The notes under the pieces: generated by a model | What the model was told of the DNA's origin: nothing | The model's input: the letters and a program-made list of their open reading frames with translations, nothing else | Databases searched by the model: none | Assembly: GCA_002633005.1 (NCBI GenBank) | Contig: NMRA01000187.1 | Coordinates: 216,191-280,190 of the forward strand | Direction: 5' to 3' | Source: Phoronis australis | Taxonomy: Eukaryota; Animalia; Phoronida | DNA: 64,000 nt | Position numbers and translations under genes: made by a program | Shown: piece by piece, positions 3,001-41,400 of the stretch | How positions within the stretch are numbered: position 1 is the stretch's first letter | Layout of the letters: the number at the start of each line of letters is the position of its first letter

Positions 3001-6000
3001 CATACCACATGTCGTCCAAGCCCATATCATCAAGAGCGTTAGTTTCCAACAAAAACTCCCATATCCGATCATATCAACTACTGTTTTGAGGGACCTTTAT
3101 GAGATCACTTTCTAAGCGATAAGTGCTGAAGTCAAATTAAAAGCGTGATGACGTCAGTGATGGTAGTCAGGTTTATCACCGCTTAGAACATACATCACCA
3201 GCTATATTGAAATGGTATGTGTACATGTACCTACCCAAAGGCCAACTAAAAGGACAAACACAAGGTATGCCACCAAAACCAGGATGTCTGCCCAGTGGTC
3301 CAATCCAGCCCGATCTAGAGCCATGTTGCTACAACCAGAATGTGTGTAGAGTCAATTGCGGTAACTGGCGGTCTCTCTCCTACCAAAGCGATATAACTGA
3401 AGATTTCAATAACTTTTACGTTGACCCAACACTCGATCCCAGCCCCAGTTGATCACTTGAACAGTACTAGTGCCATGATATCTGTAGTACACTCAGTTGC
3501 TTCACTCCATACACTGTACGCAGTCGGTTCCAACTCAATTTAATTGTCGCTGAAAAATTACTAATCACGTATGGCTCGAAATTTCAAACTTAAGCAAACT
3601 AAAACAGAGATCGGCCATAGGCGGAGCAACGATGATAACCAGTCATCTATAGCTAGGGCGGCGCGACCCCAAGCAGCAGTCCTTTATCTAATCGCCCATG
3701 TTGTTTTAATCAGAAAAATTTCGCAACATGCGTATCTTATTTGTTTACAACTTAGAACCGCTGGCTAAAGTTATGGGTTTAATAAAACTGTCAGGAGCCC
3801 GGATGTAACATTGCTGCTGTCAGCAGACTGCTGTGTGCACGTTTGTTTCAGCTCGCTGCTGTTATTGCACTTTCCGATTTCAAGATAACGACCATTTCAA
3901 AATGTCAGTTGCCTTTTAACCGAAACCAGCTATTACGTCACTTGAAAGCCCCTTCGTCAGTCTCTCAAAGATCTACAAGAGTGACCTCAATATGATTCCA
4001 GATAATTTAAAAAGTGAGAGCTGGTGGGGCGCTAAAATAAAAACGTGCGAATTTAGCTTTTTTGTACACATCCACTGGCATGACACTCGCTTTCGCTTCA
4101 AATAGAAAGAAGTACCAAAGATAAATATTTAATGATAAAATGCAAAGTATGCGTTCGAAAAATGTCTGGAATTTAATAGTCGTGGTGAAATTGCTTGAAT
4201 TGGAAATGCGTGGGACATGTGCACCTTGACATTCCATCAACTTATGTCCTCAGTATACCCAAAGATACCATATCCCTATTTAGGTCATACGTCGGACATC
4301 TTACGTAACTATAAAATCTTTGGTATACCTGCGCGCCATCCTGTGTGCGAGCTCTTTAGTCAGCCAATTTTGCCGCCAGCGACCGTCACAACGCTGCAAT
4401 TGTCCACGGCAATTTGGCCTATCGCCAGACTTATGACTGACGGCTTAACGGAATATTCAGAACGCGGCATTTTCGACACACCTTCGGAGTCTCCATTTCC
4501 AAGCCGCCATTTTACCCTACAAACAACACGTTGTAGGTGAAGCTCTTTTTAGCCTAGATCTATAGCTAAAAAAATGAGCGATATGAATATGGTGAAACGG
4601 TGTTGATATGGTGTGTGCACTTCTGACAGGCGTTATACAGCTCGAGAATATCCCGTCACTTAATTTTGGGCATTCCATTAGCCGGAAAGTGATGTCGACT
4701 GTGCAAACGATGGAATTAAACTGTGTGGAGCAGCAGATGACGGATTTAGAGGGGGGCCAAGGGAGCCATTTCCCCCAAATTCTCCCAGATTCCATTTGGC
4801 TGTTCGAGGGTGCGAATGTCTGACTGGCAAAATCCTGCATGGCTATTACTCGATCTGCCATGGCCGATCAAAATCCTGGATCCGTCCCTCTAGTGTGGAC
4901 GATCACACGAACAGCCAAACATGGCAATGTTGCTGGATTACTCGAAGGTAAAACACAAATATGTTAATTTGTTCCAAGATATGTACTTTTCAGTTTGGTG
5001 GCTATAGTGTAGGTCTATCTGATTTTGACTCCGGAAGTTCACTCGTCTGGGGCGCCTTTGTCTTGGAACACTAGCAACTAGTCCCCGAAAATTGTTGTTT
5101 TCAGGGCATTTTTAATATTTTTCATTTATTTACACCTATAATTGACATCGCTCTGTTTCGTACGGTAGCAGAGGAATATTTTTGGTTATTCATACATCCG
5201 TATAGGCTGGCGTTCAACAGAACTTCTCACTAAAATTGACAGATTCGATCGGCACTTGCAAGGAGGGGCACTAGATTACTGAACTCAAACCTTGATCGAG
5301 CTGTTGTCACGAAAAAATAAACAGTTGAATTACTTTATGTTGAGAACTTCTAGTATACACTACGCCTTTAGAGTTAGGGAGAGTTCATGTTGTAGCTGTT
5401 CAATCATGATACTTGAATTTATGAAGCTTTAAATAACAGGTTTTGTAAATGCACAATTTTGACCACTACAAATGCAGCCTTGTCATCTTTGTAACCATAC
5501 CACAGCCTAGTGATCATGATACGTTTAAAATTAAACGAAAGCTACCCTTATGCAATGATACTACAAACAATGTGGAGTTCATCAGAGGGTTGACCTAACT
5601 TAAATGTCTTAATGGTGCCCTGAATTAGGCCTATTGCCAACTCCATGCCTTAATTCGACTTAGACACAGCCCTAGACCTATCGGAGCTATAGCTTGTCTA
5701 GGATAAGATGAGTATGTATGTGCCTGAGCCATATGAACCTGATTTTTTAATCAAAATATTTCGCTCAAACAATAAAAAGTATGAACAGTGCTATCGAATC
5801 GGCCTACTTTACTCGCGAAACCCATCAATGGTGACCTACTTTGGCGGAATTTAGCAGACAGCAGATCAAAACTATCGGCAAATCTTCACTGATTTTGTTC
5901 GAAATATCCTGATATCTATGGCAAATAATTCGACTTTAACGTACATACTCAGCTTTACATGAATATATTGCATAAGTGGCTTTGCATAGTTTTCACCCGG

Positions 6001-20256: not shown

Positions 20257-20492
20257 TTACTGGCCACCATACTGGGCATACGGATACGCCATCTGTTGGG
20301 GTGCTGGCGCTTGTTGTGGCTGTTGAAGGGGCTGCTGCTGCTGCTGGGCTGCTTGTTGCGCCGCCTGTTGGTTACGGTAGTAGTGAAGGATATTTTCTGC
20401 CTGCTGCGGCTCACCTATTGACCGATAGTATTCGGCCCAGGCCTCACTGTAGTCAGGCTGAACTCCGCCACCTGCCTGACCAGGGACGGCTG
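20257..20492 (-). CDS. FUBP: FUBP last coding exon (QPDYSEAWAEYYR...YGGQ*)
   Basis: DUF1897-type DYS.AWAEYYR motif; TAA at 20259-20257. Confidence 0.95.
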
Positions 20493-23400
20493 CTGCAATA
20501 GACAAAGGAACATCAGGTCACATGCTGCGACTGCTGAGTGGTTGAGGGACAAAAACTACCAACCATATGGAGTCAGCCATATTGGATGTCTGTAACAAAA
20601 CAAATGCTAACAGACAACTGGCAAAAATCAACCAATTTTCACATAAAAGTGGCGCAGTAACGGAGCATAATTATCACAGTTTGCGTACAATGCACAACCA
20701 TAGAGATTGGCATAGTGAAGGCATCCTTGTAAACTTTGGAGACGGCGTTTTGGCAAATATAAGCCGATCACATTTATTGGCTAGTAACTAAAGTGTCACA
20801 GTATGCTTACATGCTGGCTGTGCTTGCTGTCCACCGCCGTTTTGTGGCACCGCCGCTTGGCCCCCTGCTCTCTGCTGCGTCTGTTGTTGAGGGTAATAAG
20901 CATGCCAACCAGCGTAGTTGTTGGGATCTTGAGCTTTAGCTGAAGGAGAAACAAGGAATTAGTAAAGCTACACATCCAGTACACAAACCATCTTCAACTT
21001 GTACACATCCAGTACACAAACCATCTTCAACTTGTACACATCCAGTACACAAACCATCTTCAACTTGCACACATCCAGTACACAAACCATCTTCAACTTG
21101 TACACATCCAGTACACAAACCATCTTCAACTTGTACACATCCAGTACACAAACCATCTTCAACTTGTACACATCCAGTACACAAACCATCTTCAACTTGT
21201 ACACATCCAGTACACAAACCATCTTCAACTTGTACACATCCAGTACACAAACCATCTTCAACTTGTACACATCCAGTACACAAACCATCTTCAACTTGTA
21301 CACATCCAGTACACAAACCATCTTCAACTTGTACACATCCAGTACACAAACCATCTTCAACTTGTACACATCCAGTACACAAACCATCTTCAACTTGTAC
21401 ACATCCAGTACACAAACCATCTTCAACTTGTACACATCCAGTACACAAACCATCTTCAACTTGTACACATCCAGTACACAAACCATCTTCAACTTGGACA
21501 TGGTTTGGAGCAAGAGCAAAAGCGATAAACACTTATTAAAAGTACAAATTCCAGGGTTAATGTTAGTAAAATACACAACTTATTACCTAGCTTACTACTC
21601 TGTATGCCCAGTTGTCAACAATTCACCATGTATGCATGATTCCAGCAGCAATGCAGCACACAACACATGAAGATCATGAAGTGCTTCGTTGCATAAGCAG
21701 TATATCAAACAATGATTGACCAGGGTAATCGTCCACTCTTAACACTCTAGTGGTGTCATAACCAGTGAATCCACTAATGAGTGACCAGGGGAATCGTCCA
21801 ATCTTAACGCCCTTTTGGAGTTGATCATTAGTACAAAATTTCTTCTATCTCTCAGCACACGGAAATTAACAAGAGCAATGTGGAGCATTGCAATGCGGCC
21901 ATGACGGCAAGTTGTGCTAGAATACGGCAAAAACACACAAAGTTATGAAAGCTTCGTCGTCTCTATTACAGGAATGTTTGTGTCAAATTTTATGAAAATC
22001 CACCGAGAAGTTCCAAAGATACGTAAGCAGATGTAAATTCTGTCCATCTGTTGTCAGGTTAATAGGAGTAGACTCATGGGGGTAGATATAGCCTCAGATG
22101 CAAAACTCCTGTCACTAGGGGGCACCACAGTTTCAGTTAACCATCAGATAATCCACACCAGTTGTGCTTGTGTCAGTACTAACAACAAAAGGTACCCGCT
22201 CATCCAAAACCTTTACGGCTAACAGATGGCGCTTTTCATCAATCACGTGTCATTTTATGGCTCAAGTAAGACTGTCTGCCAAAGACGCTCTCTACGGTCT
22301 CTGCTGTCTGCCAAGAACCTTGACCTACATTCTGCTGCTGCTGACTGTAACCACAGGTCACGAGAGTTCATGAACCAGACAGTGTATGTCCTGATGAGTG
22401 GCGAATTTGTGTGGAAAAGAAATCTTTGTGTCCGACATTCCATGTTTAAAACCCCATTTGTAACAACNTGACATGACCTTCTCAACAGTGACATGACCTT
22501 CTCAACAGTGACATGACCTTCTCAACAGTGACATGACCTTCTCAACAGTGACATGACCTTCTCAACAGTGACATGACCTTCTCAACAGTGACATGACCTT
22601 CTCAACAGTGACATGACCACTACTGTAAATAATTATCCTTTGGCACATAGTATAGAACACAAGATAATGAAAATGGCCACTAGGTGACGCAAAATGTGTT
22701 GAGTATGCCCTAAAATGGAAAGGCACGCTCGTTGCTTGAATATAAACCTACTTGACAAATTCCACCTCCAAATGCGTGCGTCTTTTTAGCTCGTCCATCC
22801 ACTCCCACACACATTAGTCAAAGTATTTGTCACCACGGTTTACAATCACACGAGACGCCATTGAAAAAATCCACCACGCTATCCCAGATGCCCGGGCAAT
22901 GTTGACAATTTACATTCCTCCGAAACATAAAGAGCAACTTCTGCTTTTCGAGGTGAAAGTGGTTGGCAACGCCGCGCTAAGAAAGAAATTTGCTGCGAAA
23001 TTTTTATATTAAATGCAATTTTTTTTACGCGGAAATATAATAAAATACGCGGACAGAACATTTCAAAAAAGCGGAAATCCGCATAGCCGCGGAAAATTCC
23101 AAGCCTTGAACAGATCAGCACTCAAGTTCTTCCTAACAATTCAACGTGTACTCCACTGGCAAGTGTAATCACTGCTTATATTGTTACAGGCTCAACAGTG
23201 GGAGCATTCAGCCAAGCAGGGTGCAACACAAACCTTGGCATTTGTACTTCAATTAACAAAGATAAAAACAAGCTGCAACTACAAGGTATTATTAAGTGTT
23301 CAGCCTACATATGAAGAGATTAAGTTGCAAGGGAGACAAAACACCTTGATCAAGTATGTGTAACCACTTATACGTGCACACTAAAGTAGTTTCCTTACCG

Positions 23401-26400
23401 TGACCTGTTATGTCTTGAAACATGACTCACTCGCATACTAGAGTCATCCCCTCACCCTGACCAGACATGTCTAAACATGACTCACTCACATACTAGAGTC
23501 ATTCCCTTACCCTGAACAGACATGTCTAAACATGACTCACTCACATACTGAGTCATTCCCTTACCCTGACCAGACATGTCTAAACATGACCCACTTATAT
23601 CACACGCACCTTGCTCATTGCCCATGCCTCCTTGCCATTGTGGGTACATGTTACCCCATCCCTGCGGTGCGCTGGGGTAGCCCTGTTGTGGAGGCTGCTG
23701 GGGCTGTTGTCCATAGCCCCCACCATAGGGACCGGGGACGCCGGGACCACCAGGTCCCCCAGGCCCTCCTGGACCACCCTGTGGTGGTGGATTCTGAAGA
23801 GTGAACCAACAGTATGACTATTAGAGATGACAACACTCTTTACACTATTAGAGATGACAACACTCTTTACACTATTAGAGATGACAACACTCTTTACACT
23901 ACTAGAGATGACAACATTTTTTACACTAGAAAATTTGAAACTACTTTCTGTGCGAATGATTTCCCATATCAAAACAAGCAACAGACAAATGTTAACATTA
24001 CAAAGTTTAAAGTGAAAGGTTCCCACTAATTCCTTCTCTTTGGCCAAATTAGTTTGAGACACAACAAATGGAGATGACGTGAATATCAAGTAGGTTGCAC
24101 ATTGCCAAATTTAAAACAACGCGTTTTTAGTCAAAAAATGATCCGCTGTACATCAGTGAATCCCGTCCAGATGTGTTGTAGCACTACATGTATGAGCATG
24201 CGAGGTACATCATTAGTGCAAAGGTCACCTATCTGCGGATTTTTGTTTTCACATTTACAAGTTGACAATGAATACAACTGCACTTTGCTAAGGATTATGT
24301 TACAAAGGCAGTTTCGTTTAGTTCCTGCTATACATTGAGCAAAGTTAGGAGCATGCAAATACATGTTTAATCCTCAAATCAAACTGCACAACACTATACA
24401 TCCCTCTACACGATGTTTTATTGAATTGTTTTGTTAAAAACCGATACACAAGAAAATTGTTGTAGAAAACCATCAGGGCTTGGAATGACCAATGACAAAA
24501 AAAGCGGAAATTTTGAAACTTTTATGGCCCAAATCATGCCCGATAACCAGCCTTGAAATGGTCAATGTGAACCTTTCCCCGACAAAAATCGGGAGGACTA
24601 AAAAAACAAACAAAAAACGTTACCACCATCAGTAGCATGCGTCTGCGTCCTTTTAGCTCGTCCACTCCCAACCCACACATTTTTGGCTGCAGAGCGGTAG
24701 TATTTGTCGCCGCGCTTAACAATAACACGAGACGCCATTGAAAATCCCACCACGCTATCCCAGATGCCCCGGCAATGTTGACAATTTACGTTCCTCCGAA
24801 ACATAAAGAGCAACTTCCGCTTTCCGAGGTGAACGTCGTCTGCAACGCCGCGGTAAGAAAGGAATTTGCCGCGGAAATTTTATATCAAATCCAATTTTTT
24901 TACGCGGAAATATTATAAAAAAGCGGAAAGCACATTTGAAAAAAGCGGAAAGCACATTTGAAAAAAGCGGAAATCCGCGTTTCCGCGGAAAATTCCAAGC
25001 CCTGAACCATAACGACTAACAAGGGGTGCCACAGTAGTACAAAAACCGAATGTTATGGGAACATCCACCAATAAAACTTTGTACAAAATGTTCTAATGTT
25101 CATTTAGATAAATGACGGACAAAGGTAATGGCAGGATGCACACCTCCTAACCACCCTCTACCCTGTACCCCACCCTCTACCCTGTACCCCACCCTCTACC
25201 CTGTACCTCACTCCCTCCATACATCACCCTTTCTTCCTACCTTTCCTAACTTCTGATAGATAAAGTTGAGAGCATTCCTCCTCTGTTCCCTGTCGCCCCT
25301 GATGATAAACGTCTTCTCCATAGCATTAGGGGGTGGCCCCTTCGACAGCTCAACATGGGCCCCAGTGGCCACTTTGATTTCACGAATTGTCTCCCCACCT
25401 GCAGAGAAATAAACACCCATCACGATCTAGGTGAATATCTGCACCACATCTTTGGATAATGTTTATGAACCAAAAACAAACAAACAATACAGGATCTACA
25501 TATTGCTTCAGTGACATTAAGCCATGATTACACAACAAACTGTTCAGTGACATTAAGTCCTCAGTATGTATGATGTTCCTCCTGACCACATGTGACGTGT
25601 CCTCATCATCTTACCTCTACCAATAACAAGGCCACACTTGTCAGCAGGCACATTATGATGTTCCTCCTGTCCACTGACCCCGCCCCCGCTCATTGGCCCA
25701 CGACCCCCACCAACACCACCACGACCGCCTCTCATCGCACCTCCACCATTCTGGTTACGCATCTAACAACAAAACATGAAATGCAGGGAATTCCAACAAG
25801 TCACAAAACCTCGTATTATCAAGTTGTCCAACAAGTCAATGACAGCTAAGTATTATCACATTTGTTGCCCAAAAATGAAACGTTGATTTTCAGTAATTAC
25901 GGAAACCAATGGGATTTATGGAATCTGACTTCACCCATCTAATTAGAGAATTTGAATGGAATTTTCATATTTCACCAGAAGTGGCCATAATTCTAATACT
26001 TTTGACTAATTATTATTATGAACAATAATAAAACCCATCTTATTCAACACATCGATTTGCAGCAGACATGTTCAAGTAGTTGTTAACACTTCCTGAAGGT
26101 GGCACTGCTATTTCTGGTTTTGACAAACGATAAGATAGCGTGCAGCAAGTTACTGGTAAAACAGCACCATAAATGCATACATCAGTTGTGTCGTTTTATC
26201 ACTTTCAAACAGTAAAATGTAATATGCCAATTTAAAACGTGGAAAATTACATCTGCTAAAACTGGCCTCCTGTTCAGTAACACTAGGACCTCGCTAAAAA
26301 GCAAGACTCCATGAGATTACGCGAGATATTGTCGTGTAGAGAACACATGACCTTGGCTAGATTTTAGCTAGGCCAGAGCGTAGGTCTAGCGTTACTAAAT

Positions 26401-29400
26401 GCATGACAGGATTTCTGTTTTTGAAAAACGAAGGTGACTATACCAGTCCAGACAATATTGGAAACACCTGAAAGCTGATGGGACAGGATTGTTCGTTCTA
26501 TTTAACTGTGGTTGTCACATCTGTTTTGTGAAGACTAACTAAAATAAAGCAGACTTCATTTAAACAAATATTTATGAGAACACAAAATTTTTTACGACTT
26601 TAAATGTGCCTTGTGAATTGTTACATAGCTCACTCTGCTGGTCCTGCTAGCAACAGCCCCCTATCTCACCTTCACCGTTGACTACATCCCTCTCCTTCCC
26701 ACCTTGCCAGCATCAACCCCTTCTCTCAGCATCAACCCCTTCTCTCAGCATCAACCCCTTCTCTCAGCATCAACCCCTTCTCTCAGCATCAACCCCTTCT
26801 CTCAGCATCACAAATGACTACATGACACCTACCTCTGCCTCCTGGATCAAAGAATTTATCTTCTCCACCACTTGCTGGACATTATGAGGGTTCTTACCAC
26901 TCACATGACATGTACGGACTGGCGTGCCCAGATCTGTAACAGCAATATCAGTCGATGCAGGTAATTAGCAATGAACAAGCGTTATTGGGATACAGGTTGA
27001 TCACAAGTTCCACAATGTGCACTGCATGCAACACAGATAGAGCCATGTGTGCACTGGATGCGGCACAGATACAAGGGATATCATAACTATGGTTTTTAGG
27101 CCCTCACCAATAACTGCAGTTAACCAAACACCTAGAAAACCACAAACGCAGCGTATACCACAGTAACTAGTGTAAGGTCAATACAAAGTGACCAGTGTCC
27201 AGTGATAAGTCAATAGAGGGTTCCACTCACCATCAGTGAACTGTATCTTGCACTTAAACTCTTCTTGAATACATCTGATCATCTCCCCTTTCTTGCCAAT
27301 CACTATGCCAACACAGGAGCGTGGTACCTCCACCTTCAATGCAATTTTGTTTCAAATTAAACACTGTTTGTCGCTGTACTTAAAAAGTGGTAGCCAAACA
27401 TTTTATAAACTTTGAAAGTTTAGAAAAACTATTTTGTTTCAACTATTTAACTGACCCAGAAGCTGATAGTTTCACATCAGACACGGACATATGAAGTTAC
27501 AATTGAAAGCTGTGTGTTGGAAGGTCTACTATCAAACCCCATTCACGGAGCCACAATAGGACTCTAATGGTGTTAGCGAAATCTTCCATTACTGTTGCAC
27601 AATCTGACACCCTGGCAACACTGAGTAATGCACGGGCTCTAATGATGTGCTTACAAGAGTCAGCTGACAATCAAAGCTGCAGTTCCCAGAATTTAGTTCT
27701 GACACCAACAACTCATCAGCCACACACAAACACACTTCAGTGTGTTGGGCTTGGACTACCTTAAACTGTAAATTGAAAACGATGAAACTACACACAGCTT
27801 GTGATTTGAGTTGCAGACACACTCACCAATGACTCAAGACGGGTGTTGTAACATTTTTTAAAAACAAATTCCATTGGTCAATAATTGACCATTGACAACT
27901 TAACAGCGACAAAATGCAGCTTTATGACGACAACTGTATGCCAACAATTCCACTTGATTTAGATCACCCCCAACAGTTTTTCAACCTAATCAACTAATCA
28001 AAAAAGGGTTTTTAAAGCTACCCAACCAAACAAAAACTGCAATTAATTAAGCTCTACGCAGAGATGTCAATGTAAGTTAATTAAACAGAAAAAAGTTGCC
28101 AATCAAAAACCAGCGACCAAAGCAAAGGCTAGGTGACCAGCATACCTCCACAAAGTTACTGCCATCCATAGGGTAGACCAACATACCTCTACAAAGTTGT
28201 TGCCATCCATAGGGTGGCCAGCACCACCACTCCTGTTATCCTTCTCTAACAGTTGGTTTACTAGTGACCTGGCTAGCTCCCGTGCCTCTGGTAAGCCTGT
28301 TATCTCCAGAGGTTTATCTGTGCTGGATGGCATGTTACTATCTTGAATCATCACCATCTTGACACCAGCTTGTTCCTTTATACACAGAATGATACAAGGT
28401 GAGAGATGGAGGGAGACTAGGGGTCAAGGGTCACTTTTATGGAATGACACTCATCAGACACACACACAGAGCATGTATATACAATAGCAGTACACACACA
28501 CAGAGCATGTATATACAATAGCAGTACACACACACAGCATGTATATACAATAGCAGTACAAACCTTGAAAAGCCACCACAATGGCACTCAGATCGTAAAC
28601 TTCAATTGCATCAGCTGATTATTAATTAGTATAATAAACATTGTCACTTGACAACACAAAATATGCCGAGCCCATCCAAAAATGAGAGGGCGTTGCCATC
28701 GCTTTAAAACAATTAAATGCAAACCTGTTAGGAAATCTAGAAGACGCAGCAGTAGTCGCACACGTCCAAGTCATTGTCTGTTGTAATAGCAATACACTTT
28801 GCAAACTACATCAATATGTTGAGCAAACATTTTACTATAATACCACAGTAGTCAGTAGAAATTAACATCCACTAGGTGGAGCAGACTATGTCCAAACATG
28901 GGAAAGTATCAATATGTCAGCCACAATATTCTTTATATCCATTTTGCCGTTTGCTTAAAAGCATGACAAAAGAGATATGTAACAGCAAAAGAAGACATAA
29001 CAACAAAACAAACAATTCATTGAGAAGATCTTTACCTGTAGGTTCTTGATGGTCTCGCCTCCCTTGCCTATAATCAGACCCACTTTGTTGCCAGGAATAG
29101 GCACTTGAATGGTGTCACCAGGGTTACCTTTGTTGACGATGTCGTCAATCAGCATGATCGCATGACTGTCAACATAAACATCACAATGATTGACTATATA
29201 CAGACATGAGAGTGACACGTGACTGAACCACCAATATAAGTATGATTGACTATATACAGACATGAGAGTGACACGTGACTGAACCACCAATAGAAGTATG
29301 ATCGACTATATACAGACATGAGAGTGACATGTGACTGAACCACCAACAGAAGTGCCTCATCTTAGGGATCAGTTCTCTGCATGGCTCTCAGACAGAGGGG

Positions 29401-32400
29401 ATGACTTTAGATAATCACAGGCAAACACATAAACAACTGTGGAGTCTCACAACTATCACAAACGCAACACATCAGTGTTCAAACAAATACAACTTTCATA
29501 GCATTTTAACCCAGTTTCATCATGTTCATTCATTTGACAAGGTGTTTCTTGACATAGAAATAGTAACAACTGGATGAGTGCTTGACTAACTCTGAGTTGA
29601 GACGTCACCAGATGAGGTCGTGCGGAGTGACATAACGGACGAACAGTGAGCCCCCCGCCGGTCAACAACCCGCTCGGTAGCTGAATGACCCCCCTGGTTA
29701 ACAGTTGCCTGGCGCACCTCCTTGGTCCACATCTGTTTGTCCCACCCTGTTGACAGTTACCTAACAGTCCCCACCGATATTTATGTGGCACCCCTCACCT
29801 CCACTTTCCACCTGTTTGGTGCCCCCGAGATGCTATTTGGGGCACTTTCGACTCCCCTTTTCTGGTGGTGCCTCACTTGCTACACCATTGATCAAGTGCG
29901 AGTCAATAAAAGCCTAGTTCACCATACCAACCAGGACACTCACCACCCCTCAAGCTGTTATGGGCTATTCCGTGACGCAAGGGAGCAGGAGCAATTACCA
30001 AGGGTCATCTCCATCAAAAACCATGAAGTGTTAAGTTTGCAAGGGTTGCTAACACCATAAGTCAAGTAGATGGACAGTCAGATAGTTTCATGACGCGAAA
30101 CAACTGGTATCGCCTTTACAGCCAAAAATCCTTCTTAACAAAAACAGTTTCTGAATGAACGTGCAAAGCGAGTTCACTTAACAAAATGAAGATAGTGGCA
30201 ATGATACGTGTCGGAGCAAATGTTTAGACATAAAGTAGCTCCTACACGTTACTTCAAGATAATAGCCTGCACATAAGAGGAGCCACTGTGATACAAGACA
30301 ATGTGTAGACCCTACCATCAACCAACTAGTCCATGTGTAGACCCTACCATCAACCAACTAGTCCATGTGTAGACCCTACCATCAACCAACGAGTCCAATA
30401 TCCAACTTCTTTAGTACTAACTAAAACCAATTTCACGCAAATCATCACAAGCTATACAAAAACGTGTTGGGGATGACAGCCCAAAACATGAGCTACGAGG
30501 AGGCAATTTGGTTAATTGAGTGCATACCCAACATAGTCCATCCTTCTCTATAACTTTGAGAGGTAGAGATCCTCGCCAAGGTCACAAGAACTTAGTTATC
30601 AGCAAGTGGACATTGGGAAAAGTGTCGGCAATATTTTGTCTATCCCAGGGTCACATGTACCTTAAGCTTTACACTAGTCATTACAGACTATTGCCAAAAA
30701 GGAGGTTAAGCAGCAGGGAAGGGTGAAACAATGACTTACTCGATACACTCAGGAGGGCCTGTCACTGTAACACTGCGGTTAGGTGTACCCCCAGAGTCTG
30801 GTGCAATCTGTATCTTACACTTGGACTGTGCAGAGAGCTGGGTAATCTGCTTGCCTCCAGCTCCAATAACTACAAGACAAGAGGATTTATGAGACAAATA
30901 AACAAGCAAGTCACACCATCTACAGGACGACAGATCATGTTTGGAAATTTCACCAGATTTTATTAGCTGCTCTTGTAGGTCCACTCACTCACTTAGTAAT
31001 AACTGGACTGGGCCCAGAGTCATGAACAAACTGGAACACAATGGAAGACAGGCTAGTAACTGAGCATCATGTCTGTCCTTACTGCAGTTAAAAGAGAGTT
31101 AAAGAGAGTTACAATCCACAGCAAGACTACATTTAGCCTTGATCCACAGCAGGACTGCATCAATAAATCAAAGCTTCCAGACACAGACAAAATTAAATTG
31201 AAAGCTGTGTGTTGGAAGGTCTACTATCAAATCCCATTCACAGAGCCACAATAGGACTCTAATGGTGTTAGCGAAATCTTCCATTACTGTTGCACAATCT
31301 GACACCCTGGCAACACTGAGTAATGCACTGGCTCTAATGATGTGCTTACTAGAGTCAGTTGACAATAAATTAATGTTTCTAAGGAGTTGTCATTTTAGAG
31401 CAAGACCATGAAATTTATCTCATTTTTATTCTCTTTTTATTTGTCTAAACTTCTAACAAAAGCTTTTTTGTCTTCTTCAACAGGGACCATCATATTTACT
31501 CATGTTAACGGACATATGTTGGAACCTGAGTACCAACAAAACTGCATTTAAGTACTTTGGATACCAGCTTTGTAGATTTTCGTATGCAGAACCAAACTAC
31601 AAAAAATCAAGCTTTTTTAACATGTTCGCCTCAGGGCTGTTCCAGTAAAATCCGTGTGGGAGGGGGACGGCAGTAGAAATAAAAATTCATAGGTGGTGGT
31701 CTTCAAAAAAAACCTCAAATTATGGGTGGTCGTTCCTGTAAGAAGTGATGCATTAAACATAGGTGGTATTTTTTGACCTGTTAATGTTGACAGGTTGGTT
31801 ACTTCAGCTGTCAAAACTCATAAAAAAATGCAATTGGCACATATCCTAACTTACCCCAATACAAAAAAGCCCATATTGCCAGTGAACACAGTGCAATAAG
31901 TTCACTGAGCCATTAATCAAGTCATGAGCAACTTGATTTGAGCCAACTGTTTGTCTGCAGTCCTATTGAATTGAAAAATTATGCAACACTAAACTGGTGT
32001 TAACACATATAAGAAAATTGATGATTTTTAAATAAAAAGTATGAGGAGTTAGATAAACAAGTTCCAATATTCACTTGACATAGAAGTATAAAATAGTTCG
32101 TGGAGACAGTGTTCATTGAAATTATAGACACATGGTGAACAGAGACACCTGGTGGCTGCCAAAAGTATTGCTCACAGGCTACTTTAGTTTTTGAAAATAT
32201 TGGACAAGACAACTAGTTCTTGTCTGTCAATCATCTAAGTTCTTAACAGGTCCTCCTGGAGGCAATTTGTTTGCAAGTGTTGGATTTTATATTTTGACCT
32301 ATTAAAAATAATTAAAAAATTATGGGTCATGGGTTGGAGAAATAAATGAAAAATATGGGCGGTGGGCACGAAATAAAAGTGCCTGGAACAGCCCTGATTG

Positions 32401-35400
32401 AAACTGTGTTCAGCTGCTGCCTTAGTTAGTGGATCATGCTAGCAATGGTACAAGATTCATTTAATAAATAGATAGGCTCCTTACTAAGGTTACATAATTA
32501 TGTTAATAATTGCTGATAAACATATATTGTGAATTGTGATAACTCATATACACAACAAACAGTTTCTGCCTTCAAAAGTTATGTTCGTTTCTTAAACTAA
32601 AAAGTATCTGTTAAAAAGCGTTGATGAATCTGCATTGGACGTTTTACACGAGGCAATGTTTCTAATTATTCAAAAATAATTATTCATTGCCAGCATCAGT
32701 AATCAAGTATCATCGTACTGCCTGGCAAAAACCACGACCATTGGTGACAGTTCAACGAGGCACTTAGTGCAGTCACCGTGTGTGAAAAACATACACGCTA
32801 TACAGCTTTGCGATTAAAGACACTACAATTCATTGGAATAACATGTAAGCGCAGAGTAATGTTCCTCAGTTTTCTTCAATTTTATTCTTCTTATTCTTCT
32901 TCGGACCAACTTTGACACTTAAAGGAGCCACCCAAAAAACAACCTAATTTGTATCAATTTAGATCAAGTAGTTCTACTCCATGACGGCACGTACGGTTGC
33001 GTTACCTGACACCTGACGGCAGACGGAGGTTTTGAAAATATCCAATGAGGTAATTGGTTTCACACGCAGTCTGTTCAGCAGTTCACAACACGGGTTAGTG
33101 GTGTTCGCTTATCGCTTGAATTCATCGTTTAACAATAAATCATCAAACTTCGATGTAAAACCCTTAAAAATACACCGAGTTCTTATAAAAACGTATTGTT
33201 TTATTTCTCTGTTACGGATTTATTGGTATTTGGACATACCGTAGCCTCCAAAGTTCGGCCTCCCACACAGATTTTACTGGAACAGCCCTGAATTTTGATT
33301 TCTTTTGAGAGGGTATTAAGGCCGTGTTTGGCTGACAATACCCACCTGCAAACATTTAAGGGACAAGACCTACCACCTACTATTAATGATATACCAGCCA
33401 CTATTAATGATATTCTTCCTTCAAGACGAACCAACTAGAATTATCTTCACGACAATCACCCATTCCAACTGCCGTCACCCCCCTCCCATACGCATTTTGC
33501 TGGTACACAGTTCTGACTAAGCATTGTTATATCTCTGAAAGGTATACAGGTCTAAGCATTGTTATACCTCTGAAAGGTATACAGGTCTAAGCATTGTTAT
33601 ATCTGTGTATGGACACAGTTCCACCTAAGCATCGTAACATTGGCCCGAGATCCACATTAACCCCAATACTTCAGTAGAAGTAAACAGGCACAAAGTACCA
33701 TAAGTGTCGAGAAGAACATTTCTGAAACTGTCATGTAGAGATGAACTTACCCAGACCCACGAGCCTGTCCGGAATGAAATGCTCTCTCACTGCACCTCCT
33801 CCCATAGGGATTCCTGCCCCCATAGGTTGACTAAGGGGCTGTCCAAGGGGCTGACTTGCGGGCTTGATTCCCATGCTCTGGTTAATCCTTGCAGCTGCTT
33901 CCTGGGCAGCTTGGGCAGCTTGTTGCCTGCAAAAGATAGCAAAGACAGTGATCAACGTAGACAGTGATCAACGTAGACAGTGATCAGAGTAGACTGTGCC
34001 CAGTGAAGACTGTGCCCAGTGTAGACTGTGACCAGTGTAGACAGTGACCAGTGTAGACAGTGACCAGTGTAGACAGTGACCAGTGAAGACAGTGACCAGT
34101 GTAGACTGTACTGTAACCAGTGAAGACAGTGATCAACGTAGACAGTGATCAGTGTAGACAGTGACCAGTGTAGACTGGGACCAGTGAAGACAGTGACCAG
34201 TGTAGACAGTGACCAGTGTAGACAGTGATCAGTGTAGACTGTGACTAGATTAGTGCAAGAAGGAAATGGGCAGCAGGTTGTATGGAGAAGACAGTGATCA
34301 GTGTAGATAGTATCAGGAGTGAGTCCAGTGTAGATAGCCATCAGTGTAGATAGCCATCAGTGTAGACAGTGATCAGTGTAGATTGTCACCAGTGTAGATA
34401 GTGATCAGTGTAGATAGTATTAGAAGGGAGTCCACTCATTCCAGAGTAGATAGTATTAGGAGGGAGTGTCCAGCCTGACACGAAGCTGCATTTTCACACA
34501 GAGCAAGCACAGATAGCCAAATTCCGCATATTTTTCTAAAATTGTCAACCTGAACATCATTTGGCGATGGAAACTTTAAAATGCCATAGTTTTGGACAGG
34601 TGTATAACACATGAGTGATATTGATAACAAAGAAGCTTGTTTATTTGACTGAACAAAGAATTTATATTTTAATGTGTGGCTGAGAATATGTGGACAATTA
34701 GAATGGTGACGAGATACGCACAATTGACTCTCGAATATTGACCTTGATTGTGATTTAGCCGATAGGCATTTCCACAAAGAGATCAACCTAGAGACAAAAA
34801 ATTTACACGGCGACAAGATTAACAATTTTGGTCTCACCTGAAAGCCCAGTCTATCCAATTTCAGAACTCATATTTGAATTTGATATATTTTTCATTTTTT
34901 CCTAAAGGGATTCACTTTTTTGCAGTCACTCAACCTATAAACTTGCTTCGATTTTTATGTGCATTATAAATTATTTCATCAATAAGCTGATTATGGGGAT
35001 TTCACATCATCAAATGTTTGCAATCACACATTGGACCCATCGCACATCCTCAAACTTTTGGGGTCAAAGGTCAACTACTGGGTATCATGGAGTCGTACAT
35101 CTGGCAAAAAAGTGCTAAAAAGTTTAGTTACATCAAACCTTTATCTATAACAATTCTCTTGCAACTTGTTTCTTCTTTTGGAAAATTTCAGATACACTAA
35201 GTAATCACATGAAATACTTCTATGCTCTGAAGTTTTAATAGCAGGACACCATAAGAAATACACGCCAAGTTTTGTTCTGATGGAATAAGAAATACACTGC
35301 AAGTTTTTGTTCTGATGGAGTCAATTTTATTTCTGCTCTGACTTGCTGTGCTATGTTTTGTGTTGAAAAAGCCGATGCTAAGCATTTTCAAACATTAGCA

Positions 35401-38400
35401 ACCAGTGATCTACTTTTTTAAAGCATTTTGGTTAGTTTTACCGACAGTAGCCACTCTTGTTTTTCAATGTCTTAAGTGGTTTGTATGGAATGATTTCAAA
35501 GCAAATGATTGCATTGCCTCATATTACATATTTTTGGCAAAACAAGAACCTTGACTTCACAATCAGTTTGACCGAAAATTATTTTTTTCTACACACCTTC
35601 GACAGGATTCAAACAAAGTATAGAAACAAAAGATTACCAACATGTGGCAAATACAAAATTATTACCATGTTGCTAAGATACAATGGTAGACTTACCTCTG
35701 CTGTTGCTGCTGCTGCTGATCTGCCATGACACGTACTTGACCATAGGCTGAAACAACACAGTCATCTACAGTACTGTATACAGCTAATAGAGTTGATCAC
35801 AGTAATACAGTACAGTATACAACTAATAGAGTTGATCACAGTAACACAGTACAGTATACAACTAATAGAGTTGATCACAGTAACACAGTACAGTATACAG
35901 CTAATAGAATTAATCACAGTAATACAGTACAATATACAGCTAATAGAGATTATCATAGTAATACAGTACTGTACAACTAATAGAGTTGATCACAGTAATA
36001 CAGTACAGTATACAATAGTCATCATAGTAATACACAGGGCTTGGAATGATCAATGACAAAAACGCGAAAACTTTTACGACCCAAATTATGCGCGCTACCC
36101 AGCCTTGAAATGGTTGATGTGAAAATTTCCCCGACAAAAATCGGGAGGGCTAAAAAAAAAAAGAAAAAAAAAAAAGAAAAAAAAAACGTTACCACCATCA
36201 GTACCATGTGTCTGCGTCCTTTTAGGTCGCCCGTCCACTCCCAATCCACACACTTTTGGCTGCAGAGCCGTAGTATTTGTCGCCGCGGTTTACACGAGAA
36301 GCCATTGAAAATCCCACCACGCTATCCCAGATGCCCCGGCAATGTTGACAATTTACGTTCCTCCGAAACATAAAGAGCAACTTCCGCTTTTCGAGGTGAA
36401 CGTCGTCTGCAACGCCGCGGTAAGAAAGGAATTTGCCGCGGAAAATTTATATCAAATCCGATTTTTTTACGCCGAAATATAATAAAATGCGCGGAAAGAA
36501 CATTTGAAAAAAGCGGAAATCCGCGTTTCCGCGGAAAATTCCAAGCCCTGAATACAGTACGCTCCAATAGAGCTCGACAAATGGCAGAAACATTCCACAA
36601 ATTTATGAAGCTGTGTTCTCCACAACCTCCATTGACTCATCACAGGGTCGATTTTGAATTTTGTTGAGAAGTGTTTGAATTACTTTCATCGAGTTTGAAA
36701 ATCTATGCAACCAGTTTGAAGTACTGATATATTATTCATTTCATAAACAAGTTAAAAATTGTTGAGATTTCTTGACCAGTTCAATGTATTTATTCCAAGC
36801 TCCTCAAAGTATGGACATGGACTTTCGAAAGCGTACAAGAATTTTGTAATTCCATACAGGAATTTTGTAATTCCAGACTAGTTTGAATTTTCTGTTGTAG
36901 AGAACTCTGAGAAGACAACAGGCAAAATCAACTGAAAATCAGTAGGATTTTTGCTTTGGATGGAGCTTCTTTTTGAAACCCGTTGTACATCATTTCCAGA
37001 TGTACAGATAGTCCTCAAGTTCACTTCACCTTTAACCATTGTTACAAAATACTGTTAAGTGAATTTGATATCAGTAGACAACAACATAAATGCAGTAGGT
37101 GAGATTTTTCTTCGATTTTGTTGCTGATCAAAAAATACATACTTGTGCTTTTCAGACTGCATGCAGCGTCATACAAACCAGCTTTGGTTCATATTTGGAT
37201 GTTAGCTATGTTTGCTGCTTCCAATCCAAAGACTTCATTTTTTTAGTTTTAAAGAAAATGTACTACGATATACTTAGATCGTTTGAGCTCTCAAATTACA
37301 TGTAGGACTGGATATATCATTTCAAACTTAATTCACACAAGCGGAAGCACTATATTATCCACAGCACTGTATGCAGGTTCAAATTATTTTAGGAAATCCT
37401 AATGGTTCAATGGAAGGTTTGTAAATAAAACAAGCAGTGAAACAGTAAGAAAACAGGGCATAGTAGGTGACCAGTTGTAGACAGGTTAGCACAAGCAGTC
37501 CTCATAGGGCTGTTCCAGTAAAAAATGTACGGGAAGGGGGAAGGCACTTTCATTTCTTACCCACCGCCCATATTTTTCTTTTTTCTCTCCAACCCACTTC
37601 ACATAACTTTTAATTATGTTGAAATATAAAATGCAGTTGTTGAGAGAATCAACCTGTCTTGAAAACATTAAAATGGCCAACAGGGGGTGCTACGGTAGCC
37701 AAATCTGTCTGAAAACCGATTGGTGCTGGTGCATGCCATCCAGCTATGTCTATGCCAAATGTTTTCATGATCCATAAGCGGTTTCAAGATAACTGACAGA
37801 CAAGCAATGACCTGAGCAATCGAAAACTTAAGGGCGCCAAGGCACAGTAGTTGAATCCGTCCAAAAATTGACTGGTGCAAGCACATTCTTGCCATGTTTC
37901 CGTTTCAAATTTGATCGTGATCCGTCATGCAGTTTTCAAGATAATCGACACACAAGGAGTGGCTTGGCCAACATGGGTTACCAAGGTTACCAAATATGCT
38001 TGAAAATCGACTGGTGCTAGCATGTCTCCATCACGTATCTCTATACCTAATTTCATCGTTATCCGCCAAGTGGTTGTTGAGATAACTGATGGACAAGAAA
38101 TGATAATGACAGACAGACCGACATGATAATGACAGACAGACCGACATGATAATGACAGACAAACCGACCACAAAGTTTCTACGGGTGCATAATTCCTTGC
38201 GAGATCACAACTCACGTCAGTTACCAAAAACTTGCTTTTCAAAAACGCACGTGAGCAATACTTTTGGCAGCCAGTCCACCATGTGCTTCTGTAATTTCAG
38301 TAAGATTTTTTTCAATTTCATGGATCAATGAATCTCAAAGTGTCTCAACCCATGATTTTAGACTGCTATGCCAAGTGAATATTGGAACGTATCTATCTTA

Positions 38401-41400
38401 CTCCTCATACTTTTTATTTAAAAATCACCAATTGTCTTAGATGTGTTAACACCAGTTTAGTGTTGCAGTAATTTTCATTCTAATGTAACTGCAGTACAAC
38501 ATGTGCATGTAATCAAATTGCCCATCACTTGTTTAGCAGCACAGTGTACATATTGCACTCTGTACACTAGCAACAGCGCTCAATTTTATTGTTTTGGGAT
38601 ACTTTTAGATATCTGCCAAGTGAATTTTTGGTGAGTTTTAATTTCTTTTGAGATGTGTTTGGCTGAAAATATCCACCTGTTAACATTTTGAGGTAAAAAA
38701 ATACAACCCAGTTTTAACACTTTACTTCTTACAAGAACGACCACCCATGATTTGAGTTTTCTTCTTAAGACCAAAACGCATCAATTTTTAATTTCAACTG
38801 TCATCCCCCCTTCTCATACATAATTTTGCTGGAACAGCCCTTAATAGAATTATGAATGAACCAATAAATACTTGATAACCTAAGATTAAAATATTCAAAC
38901 ATTCACACATTTTGATGAACATGTATTATATTTCAAAATAGATACAAAGCAATAAGAAAGTGTGAGAAGTGACAATGGGCACACAATGTGAAAAGGCTCT
39001 CACAGATTCCTTGGTGGTTAACCTTCCAACATCCAATGTTTAACGCAGTGTTTACAATCAACAAGTTGAAACAAGACAAGTGATGGTACTCAGATATCAA
39101 AGCATCGCCAACACACACAATGCAAAAGATAGACAAGTCAACAATCAGTCAGTTTGAGCAATATTCTGTAAACTTTATAAAAAGCACAGCATAATGTATA
39201 CATATTATTCACCTAAGTGACCCAATTTGTCATTTTTTCAAACTTCAGTACAATTGTAGTATCCAAAAGTTAATTTGCCCCAAAAGTTGGTCGTCAACAC
39301 AGCGCGAGGTCACAATGTGCCAACTCAGTCAAGCTAGTTCACAGGCCAATGGACTGGCGTGTCAAAAAGTACCAGGATGATCTAGTAGCATGGCTAAGAT
39401 AAACAGTAGTGATACTAGTGAGAGGCAGCATACTGCAGAGGGACCCTGTAAAAAGACGGCAATAGGTGACGGAAACAATTCCTGGCCACGAAGGGATACC
39501 ATTCCCATTTTGTGAAGCCAGGGAATGGAAAAAAGAGGATAACGAGACTGGCAACTGAGCAAGATTGGAAATGAAACTTGAAGTTTAAATGGAGCCGAAT
39601 GTCTTGGCACTTTGGTGAGTTAACCCTAGCTAGACTACCTTGTTGCATTGTAAGTGTTAGGCATTGTTGTATACCATAACCCAGCGTGTTAAACCACCGC
39701 ACCACCTCATATCTACCACTGAAAACCTTTTCGCATTGCGTTACTGACAGATGGCCAGTGCAGTGCTGCGAGGGCGCCAGGAATTGCTTCACTGCACAAT
39801 ACTTACGATCGTTATCTGTGGCTAACTTTTTGGCATCGGGACCACCAGCTGAAAATTGGAGAAGAGAATTAAATTAGAGAGCACAGTGGCTCACAGAGGC
39901 TACAGTATATAGTGAGTTACTAACTCTAGCTATATCTCACTTATCTTCTTACTAACAAGTCACCTAACCAAACCTGCAGACCCACAGACACTGGCCAGTA
40001 TATCCCTTCTTTGTTTCACCAACAGATGTCCATGGTGTCTCCATGTGAGGTGGGTATTACCATTAGCGCAATGCATATACTTACATGAGAAGGACCAGCC
40101 CCCATGACAGTGCAACCAACCTTTTCTAGATGGAAACACAGGTGCTGGGCAACCGTTGTACGCATAGCCACATGATCAGGCGCCTGGCAACCGTTGAACG
40201 CATAGCAACATGACACTGTCCAGGTAATGGAGTCGTGACAGCAAGACACAAGAAACGATTGGCACAAAACAAATCAATGCATAAAACAGTAGAAAAAGAA
40301 AACACAAGGTGGAACAAAAGAGGCGATCCTGGTGAAGACGGGTGTTGTCCGTGTAGCACATGGCCAACTGTGTGGTCTAGGGAACAAAACTGGTTAATAG
40401 AGAAGACAAGAACCGCAGTAAACAATGGATGATTCGAAGGTAACCAAGAAAACGAGCGACCCATTCAACAATCGGTGGAAAAAACATGGGCAATAACTCA
40501 GACACGGTCTGTTTCTGATGTGCCGAAACAGATGAACGAGTACATATGTGTGTACAGTATAACTATCTTTGTTGTACGAGTAGTTATGACAACTGAGGAA
40601 CAACAAACAAACAAACAAACAAACAAACAAACAAAAGAACAGTCCAACATTGGAGACAACATCACCAACAAAGAGAGCCATCACACCAGGGCTGAGTCCA
40701 AGCCAAGTGCTCTGCTAAAGATCTCTGGCCATCTGTAAATGAACCACAGCAGAAAGCAAGCAACATCCGGGCAGTAGACAACTGCAAAGTCACTTAAAGA
40801 GTCGGGCAGACACTATACAGTAACAATAAGCGCCCCCTGTTTCTGGTCAAGACATGGAGAGCATTGAACAAAGATGACTCACCTTCTTGGTCAGGTTGTC
40901 CGCTGCCCCACGGGTACTCACCAGCATCACTACTATCCCAAGTGCGCTTCATTCCTGCACCAGTGTCTCCACCTGCAGTTGGCGGTTTCATTCTAGCCGC
41001 AATCTGAAACAAGTTATTGGACTATTAGTGATCATTTTACAAGGGTTCATTTTCACTAGCGATCATTTTCACTAGCGATCATTTCCACCAGATTTTTGCA
41101 TGGTCGTTCGTTTTCCATCACAAATAGGTGTGTAGCAGTCAATTTGGGCATAATGTATAAGTGGTGGGGCTCTGATGTTTACACGCAGTGTAATCCCAGT
41201 CGTCTGTGCATATTTCTTGTGTTGGTAACTGTAGCTCTGATGATATGATAATCTTCAGAACAGCACTTTGGGATCACCAAAAACAGTGCACTAATCATTC
41301 AATCTGTAATATATCTCTGGTATGTTATTTAGCCGTTTTAGTAAATTTACAGTGTTTTAAGTAAAAAAGCTCACTATATGAGAGCTGTTTTGTAAATTTA

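Follow-up and report, generated by a model that had tools for sequence, protein, structure and literature searches.

SNORA6 (ACA6) and SNORA62 (E2) are human box H/ACA snoRNAs of the Rfam family RF00091, with RPSA as host. In the available passages of Weber 2006 (PMC1687206), both RNAs guide U3832 through the 3' pocket, and the 5' pockets guide U3616 and U3830; ACA6 is traced back to fish and E2 is seen as derived. The same paper assigns U3616 to E2, the opposite of three other sources, and with either assignment one vertebrate RNA therefore holds both U3616 and U3832. For human SNORA6, the supplement of Jorjani 2016 (PMC4914119), in its available parts, gives 28S-3616 as the selected target of the 5' pocket and 28S-3832 as the reported target of the 3' pocket; its own computation places the 3' target of both human RNAs at 28S-4438 instead of 3832, and the conservation of the family is given as deuterostomes. 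Several published tables, as far as available, name U3616 as the sole target of SNORA6 and assign U3830 and U3832 to SNORA62.

Family members have also been described in sponges, where they reside in FAU introns, move between species and have been detected by RT-PCR (PMC4515611). In the available passages of that paper, the 3830/3832 region is the only assigned target, and SNORA6 is derived from SNORA62, the opposite of Weber 2006. In yeast 25S rRNA, according to the table available in PMC5699541, position 2347 carries Um/psi (snR65, snR9), 2349 and 2351 are pseudouridylated by snR82, 2129 by snR3 and 2416 by snR11. The yeast snR82 (RF01261) belongs to the same Rfam clan as RF00091, CL00040. 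The nematode RNA ceN58 (RF01645) stands outside this clan in the Rfam listing; for its host and targets, nothing relevant was found in the literature searched.

In this study, a stretch of 64,000 nucleotides from Phoronis australis (contig NMRA01000187.1; hereafter the window, to whose numbering all positions refer) was analyzed, following an original prediction of a single guide RNA in a FUBP intron. Most probably, this RNA is one of two FUBP-intron copies of a SNORA6-type snoRNA, with the equivalents of U3616 and U3832 as its predicted targets.

Two snoRNA copies in the introns of a FUBP gene

The host gene, its two relevant introns and the snoRNA copies are located as follows.

20258..41000 (approximate coding span), minus strand: host gene of the FUBP/KSRP family with four KH domains and a FUBP_C motif (Pfam, tblastn; 5' end placed by eye)
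27334..28186, minus strand: FUBP intron with copy 1, 853 nt, GT..AG, between the KH2- and KH3-coding exons (spliced RNA reads)
30870..33750, minus strand: FUBP intron with copy 2, interrupting KH1 (ends deduced from GT/AG and the reading frame)
27512..27650, minus strand: SNORA6-type box H/ACA snoRNA, copy 1 (match to RF00091 model positions 1-154; two-hairpin fold)
31207..31345, minus strand: snoRNA copy 2 (RF00091 match; alignment to copy 1)

Seven host exons were scanned with Pfam, and KH_1 was found in five of them (four above the cutoff), FUBP_C in one and no match in one. Named FUBP proteins match the host exons in collinear order in tblastn, the best matches reaching only ~50-60% identity per exon; a protein search with a single FUBP host exon gave no match. 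The splice junction of the copy 1 intron is crossed by 112, 85 and 165 reads in three RNA runs. The Pfam, tblastn and spliced-read evidence bears out the original prediction of a FUBP host on the same strand, and both copies are intronic and in host-sense orientation. In the literature searched, which covered few subscription papers, no report of a FUBP-hosted snoRNA was found.

The picture of a single RNA proved incomplete, since the near-identical copy 2 lies in another intron of the same gene. Over 142 aligned positions the two copies differ by three substitutions, all in the upper stems and none in the pockets or boxes. The copies probably arose by local DNA duplication, because they have ~20 nt of flank in common on the 5' side and ~35 nt on the 3' side, and a poly(A) tail is absent after them.

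In a whole-window Rfam scan, copy 1 matches RF00091 over positions 1-154 of the 154-position model (67.4 bits, E 2e-10), and copy 2 also gives a full-length match (65.2 bits, E 6.5e-10). Both score below the curators' cutoff of 80 bits and are therefore termed family homologues here, not formal Rfam members; at curated cutoffs, the scan of the window lists no family. The covariance-model check proposed for the prediction thus came out positive in length and E value, but short of the cutoff in bits, and the match agrees with the predicted identity: an intronic H/ACA snoRNA, related to SNORA6/SNORA62, whose two pockets match rRNA and whose host is not RPSA. In the Rfam scan up to E 10, copy 1 has no match to snR82 and none to a scaRNA; ceN58 gives a weak match (E 0.29), far under its cutoff.

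Two other readings of copy 1 were considered. A composite C/D-H/ACA scaRNA of the U85 type was suggested by UGAUGA upstream and CUGA downstream, both missing at copy 2, and a likeness of the downstream flank to U18 was considered, with boxes that copy 2 does not keep and with no Rfam match up to E 10. Both readings were rejected, because copy 2 lacks the C/D boxes and there is no Rfam match.

Copy 1 is 139 nt long, and its pockets and boxes are as follows.

27638..27643, minus strand: pocket 1, 5' strand AUUAGA (pairing with LSU pieces)
27602..27608, minus strand: pocket 1, 3' strand GUCAGAU (pairing with LSU pieces; H box 13 nt away)
27590..27595, minus strand: H box ACAGUA (from the sequence; aligns with the H box of the Rfam consensus)
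27574..27581, minus strand: pocket 2, 5' strand UUUCGCUA (pairing with LSU pieces)
27525..27533, minus strand: pocket 2, 3' strand GAUAGUAGA (pairing with LSU pieces)
27515..27517, minus strand: ACA box (from the sequence; position kept in 30/36 homologues)

The lower stem of hairpin 1 (GCACA/UGUGC) begins at 27650, the H box fits ANANNA in the hinge, hairpin 2 is closed by UGGAAG/CUUCCA, and the ACA lies 3' of the second hairpin, with 3 nt beyond it up to the end at 27512. Pocket-to-box spacings in H/ACA snoRNAs usually range from 14 to 16 nt. Here, pocket 2 lies 14 or 16 nt from the ACA, and pocket 1, at 13 nt from the H box, is one short of the range. The predicted sequence, boxes, coordinates and spacings of 13-16 nt are all present on the minus strand. 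In an unconstrained fold, both hairpins form, pocket 1 stays unpaired and pocket 2 is closed in part; the folding energy is unremarkable (z -0.32, equalled by 74 of 200 shuffles).

The FUBP introns hold further features. A weak snoU83B-like C/D match, in which a C box is visible and a clear D box is absent, is located at 36574-36651 on the minus strand in an upstream intron (24.4 bits, cutoff 35, E 0.95). A dispersed repeat of up to ~520 nt (families D5, D10, D14 and D19) occurs three times, at ~22760-23110, 24480-25006 and 36040-36552; by eye its ends resemble short inverted repeats, possibly those of a non-autonomous transposon. A second repeat family (I1-I5), in inverted arrangement and with short inverted ends beginning AGGGCTGTTCCAG, is found at 31631-33291 and 37506-38840, one of them ~290 nt upstream of the second snoRNA. 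Tandem arrays are present at 20969-21496 (33 nt unit), 22469-22618 (20), 26708-26810 (19), 33950-34430 (16) and 35768-35973 (39).

Predicted rRNA targets of the two pockets

The pockets were compared with four LSU rRNA pieces of other eukaryotes, fetched by pattern, confirmed as RF02543 and at most 841 nt long each, and with a fifth fragment, fetched by a one-site pattern, that spans site 1 only; the two-site LSU pattern had no match in viral contigs. In each of the four pieces, the best site per pocket is the expected uridine, out of 113-245 uridines. Among 300 shuffles of one 834-nt piece, the pocket 1 score was reached twice and the pocket 2 scores never, a lenient control, given that a pocket-derived pattern was used to select the pieces and that these represent part of the rRNA.

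The best site of pocket 1 is GAAUCCGAC[U]GU(C/U)UAAU, the equivalent of U3616, in 4/4 pieces; the pairing comprises 3+6 contiguous pairs and, beyond a single A.C mismatch, four more. AUUAGA forms the six contiguous pairs 3' of the site in all four pieces (in one piece a pair is G.U), and GUCAGAU forms three pairs with AAUCCGAC, followed by the A.C mismatch and four further pairs, the last with a lower-stem base. The prediction had given the target as AAUCUGAC. This sequence occurs in none of the LSU pieces, and AAUCCGAC occurs in 5/5, although the search patterns permitted either letter; the mismatch therefore stands unless the rRNA of this species differs, and the position is marked variable in the Rfam LSU consensus.

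Pocket 2 fits the LSU pieces in two registers. In register A, UCUACUA[U]CUAGCGAAA is matched with 7+8 pairs at 14 nt from the ACA; in register B, UCUACUAUC[U]AGCGAAA is matched with 9+6 pairs at 16 nt. The 5' strand contributes eight pairs in register A and six in register B in 4/4 pieces, and the 3' strand 7-8 and 9-10 pairs, respectively. The distance from site 1 to the register A uridine is 216 nt in three of the four pieces and 223 in the fourth, and the human distance from 3616 to 3832 is 216. When the 2347/2349/2351 spacing is aligned with the U-A-U-C-U run, register A would correspond to yeast 2349 and human U3832, register B to yeast 2351, and human U3830 to yeast 2347. The numbering of the prediction was thus shifted, as only 2349 among the two register positions has a human counterpart, and its attribution of yeast 2129 to snR11 differs from the published table, which gives snR3 (PMC5699541, available part). 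The U3830 equivalent did not surface as a site for either pocket among the LSU pieces.

On these foreign LSU pieces, the RNA therefore shows the SNORA6 arrangement, with the U3616 equivalent in the 5' pocket (one mismatch) and the U3832 equivalent in the 3' pocket. The arrangement of SNORA62 (E2), with the U3830 equivalent in the 5' pocket, was not found, the U3616 equivalent being best in 4/4 pieces.

Human SNORA6 resembles the window RNA in its two-hairpin H/ACA layout, its intronic location and its 5' pocket to U3616. By eye, UUUCGCUAACACC and GUUUG..UAGUA recur in its 3' pocket, for which U3832 is the reported target in the available part of PMC4914119. The two differ in host (RPSA against FUBP with two near-identical copies) and in the 5' pocket strands (AUUAAA and GUCGGAA against AUUAGA and GUCAGAU, the latter spaced at 13 nt). 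Human SNORA62 has the same 3' hairpin pocket and a similar left strand in the 5' pocket, UUAGAGC; that pocket is assigned to U3830 in the sources as available, whereas the 5' pocket of the window RNA fits the U3616 site. The sponge SNORA62 homologues are likewise invertebrate and have a host other than RPSA, but the host is FAU and, in the available passages, the 3830/3832 region is their only assigned target (PMC4515611). Yeast snR82 guides 25S 2349 and 2351, the two registers of pocket 2, but its model is 270 long against 139 nt, and its other target in the available sources is 25S 1110 and not 2129/U3616. In the consensus of nematode ceN58, the two motifs of the 3' pocket recur, and a strand of the 5' pocket is similar.

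From the general working of H/ACA RNPs, the RNA would be trimmed out of the FUBP intron, and each hairpin would load dyskerin/Cbf5, NOP10, NHP2 and GAR1. For conversion to pseudouridine, the uridine equivalent to U3616 would then sit in the 5' pocket and that equivalent to U3832 in the 3' pocket, and register B, at 16 nt from the ACA, may serve the yeast 2351 equivalent, two bases on. On the basis of the pairing, we infer guide activity at these LSU sites.

Homologues, RNA reads and alternative explanations

A search with the 3'-pocket pattern returned 48 metagenome loci with 36 distinct sequences, which are not independent, as they come from few lineages and two flank clusters account for 19 and 12 of the 48 loci. 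Fifteen loci were scanned with Rfam: 12 match RF00091 with 33.3-78.5 bits, all under the cutoff, one matches snR82, three have weak matches to ceN58, and L038 and L042 match nothing at E 0.05. The ACA is found at the same distance in 30/36 distinct homologues, though it lies outside the search pattern. The lower stem of hairpin 2 has at least five pairs in 34 of 38 sequences (both window copies included), against 29% of mismatched arm pairs (n=918), and its sequence varies between lineages while the pairing is kept (on average 5.9 pairs with the native partner vs 4.1 with a foreign one). The RNAalifold consensus closed the pockets and missed this stem because the alignment was out of register, and therefore the anchored count was used.

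Hairpin 1 is also outside the search pattern. At least nine contiguous pairs with the U3616 site were scored by script in 29/36 homologues, and pocket 1 was recognized by eye in 29/36; 28 are common to both sets, L032 passing by script alone, at another position, and L049 by eye alone. In a blind pocket search, which is too lenient for picking targets, the U3616 site is top-ranked in only 10/36, and the argument is therefore one of conserved position, not of strength.

An alternative explanation is that the RNA is real and only its 3' pocket works, pocket 1 being in decay and another snoRNA serving the U3616 equivalent. The 13-nt spacing fits such decay, as it is 14 nt in 31/36 homologues (all those with a placeable pocket), and so do the A.C mismatch that every fetched LSU piece gives at the fourth pair and the seven of 36 homologues that fail U3616 pairing, L008 and L040 having a clearly changed 5' pocket. 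However, the pocket is unchanged in both window copies though their upper stems differ, four more bases pair beyond the mismatch, and the same A is found at the mismatch position in 15 homologues, which indicates either tolerance of this base or a matching change in the rRNA. A decaying pocket 1 is accordingly considered unlikely.

The RNA reads bear on the question of which copy supplies the RNA. In the three RNA runs, reads on the copy 1 intron are on the host strand, and depth is near zero outside the snoRNA, with peak bins on copy 1 of 10.8, 18.8 and 2; the bins upstream of copy 1 have no depth, and in X7 a short stretch close to the 5' splice site is covered as well. The three copy-diagnostic bases are not listed as differences in the reads aligned on copy 1. 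Loose read ends occur at 27501 in 12 reads (X6) and 16 reads (X7) and, by eye, run into the downstream flank of copy 2 for a median of 79 (X6) and 51 (X7) bases; none are listed on the 5' side of copy 1. These reads point to molecules beginning inside copy 2 and continuing beyond the ACA. They resemble the 5'-shortened, snoRNA-retaining transcripts known in human cells from the available part of PMC12152556. For copy 2 and its downstream flank (31130-31345), the reads past the ACA suggest a snoRNA-capped, 3'-extended FUBP transcript.

Copy 1 could accordingly be a little-used duplicate, with the RNA supplied by copy 2, whose flank the loose ends enter, while depth into copy 1's own flank is small (0.43 in one X7 bin). 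But the runs are long-RNA libraries, in which the reads show 3'-extended forms and the mature RNA of 140 nt, lost in ordinary RNA-seq, is outside what is seen. In addition, the boxes of copy 1 are intact, two of its stem pairs are missing from copy 2, and it folds slightly better under constraint (-34.5 vs -31.8 kcal/mol). A minor role for copy 1 is thus improbable, and the reading of two FUBP-intron copies of a SNORA6-type guide is preferred.

The original prediction had joined the jobs of both human guides in one unusual RNA. The tables that give SNORA6 only U3616 and SNORA62 both U3830 and U3832 do make the RNA look fused, but in the available parts of the sources both human RNAs share this 3' pocket (PMC1687206; PMC4914119), and the printed sequence and targets of human SNORA6 contradict a fusion (PMC4914119). 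The best sites of pocket 2 are the equivalents of 2349 and 2351, and the SNORA62-specific U3830 is the site of neither pocket, which makes separate jobs in one RNA very improbable. The two-site design is the known SNORA6 design and not a fusion of two guides, because U3616 and U3832 in one RNA have already been published for the vertebrate family. A dispersed repeat or chance look-alike, to which two copies within 64 kb and a fold no better than shuffles might point, can practically be dismissed, since the full-length RF00091 match and the homologues from distant animals with boxes at fixed distances are more than chance, both copies are intronic and host-sense, and RNA depth is confined to the element.

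Hosts and history of the family

The larger flank cluster (19 loci) lies in a BRG1-type gene, for which the best match with a name comes from a stony coral (90% identity). Because this likely-coral cluster carries the U3616 and U3832 two-pocket form, the form is likely older than the coral-bilaterian split, in line with the predicted possibility of an ancestral state.

FUBP exons flank the RNA in nine of the 48 loci, in three flank groups: L038, L032 and the 12-locus cluster. L038 is identical to dust-mite FUBP, and its 5' hairpin is without the site 1 pocket. The FUBP intron that holds the RNA differs among the three groups and from that of the window. Further hosts are also seen; among 150 segments scanned from 18 of the 48 loci, L022 was found near a GTP_EFTU exon. 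The different host, which the prediction pointed out, has a published precedent in the sponge FAU genes (PMC4515611, available passages).

Several homologue loci show features of their own. L008, L019, L027, L040 and L048 represent a paralogue with a changed 5' pocket, with the strands UGUUUCAA and GUACUAG (e.g., L019:1424-1500). Within the BRG1-type gene, ~2.2 kb separate it from a copy of the U3616 type (L018 and L019, on one contig), and it would be a duplication with retargeting of the 5' pocket, parallel to SNORA6 and SNORA62 in RPSA. In L030, C/D snoRNA-like matches (snoZ157 and SNORD53/92; clan CL00063) at 827-911 and 2493-2578 flank the H/ACA homologue, so that this host appears to have several snoRNAs. 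At L025:1486-1713 and L028:1487-1627, the 3' pocket motif is found near other neighbours (ABC transporter, MDM10); L025 has a weak snR82 match, and ceN58, with the same motifs, may belong with clan CL00040.

Tentatively, and with somewhat less than even confidence, a wider history can be proposed, in which the U3616 and U3832 form is ancestral in animals, from before the coral-bilaterian split, and SNORA62 is derived; in several invertebrate lineages the RNA would have stayed in FUBP while hopping between its introns, and the 3' pocket would slide between registers, so that three pseudouridines would be served by a single RNA of 139 nt.

The window RNA is real but ordinary, a homologue of a known family, and the remaining points are modest. 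A known snoRNA family is extended to an invertebrate in which it is overlooked at Rfam's cutoff, which is mostly of annotation value. Neither the direction of ancestry nor the recurrence of FUBP is surprising to a specialist. The homologues favour the direction of Weber 2006, with a SNORA6-like RNA first and SNORA62 derived, over the opposite order put forward for sponges. FUBP recurs as a host, in four lineages and with the RNA in different introns, and makes a case for studying the movement of snoRNAs within a gene.
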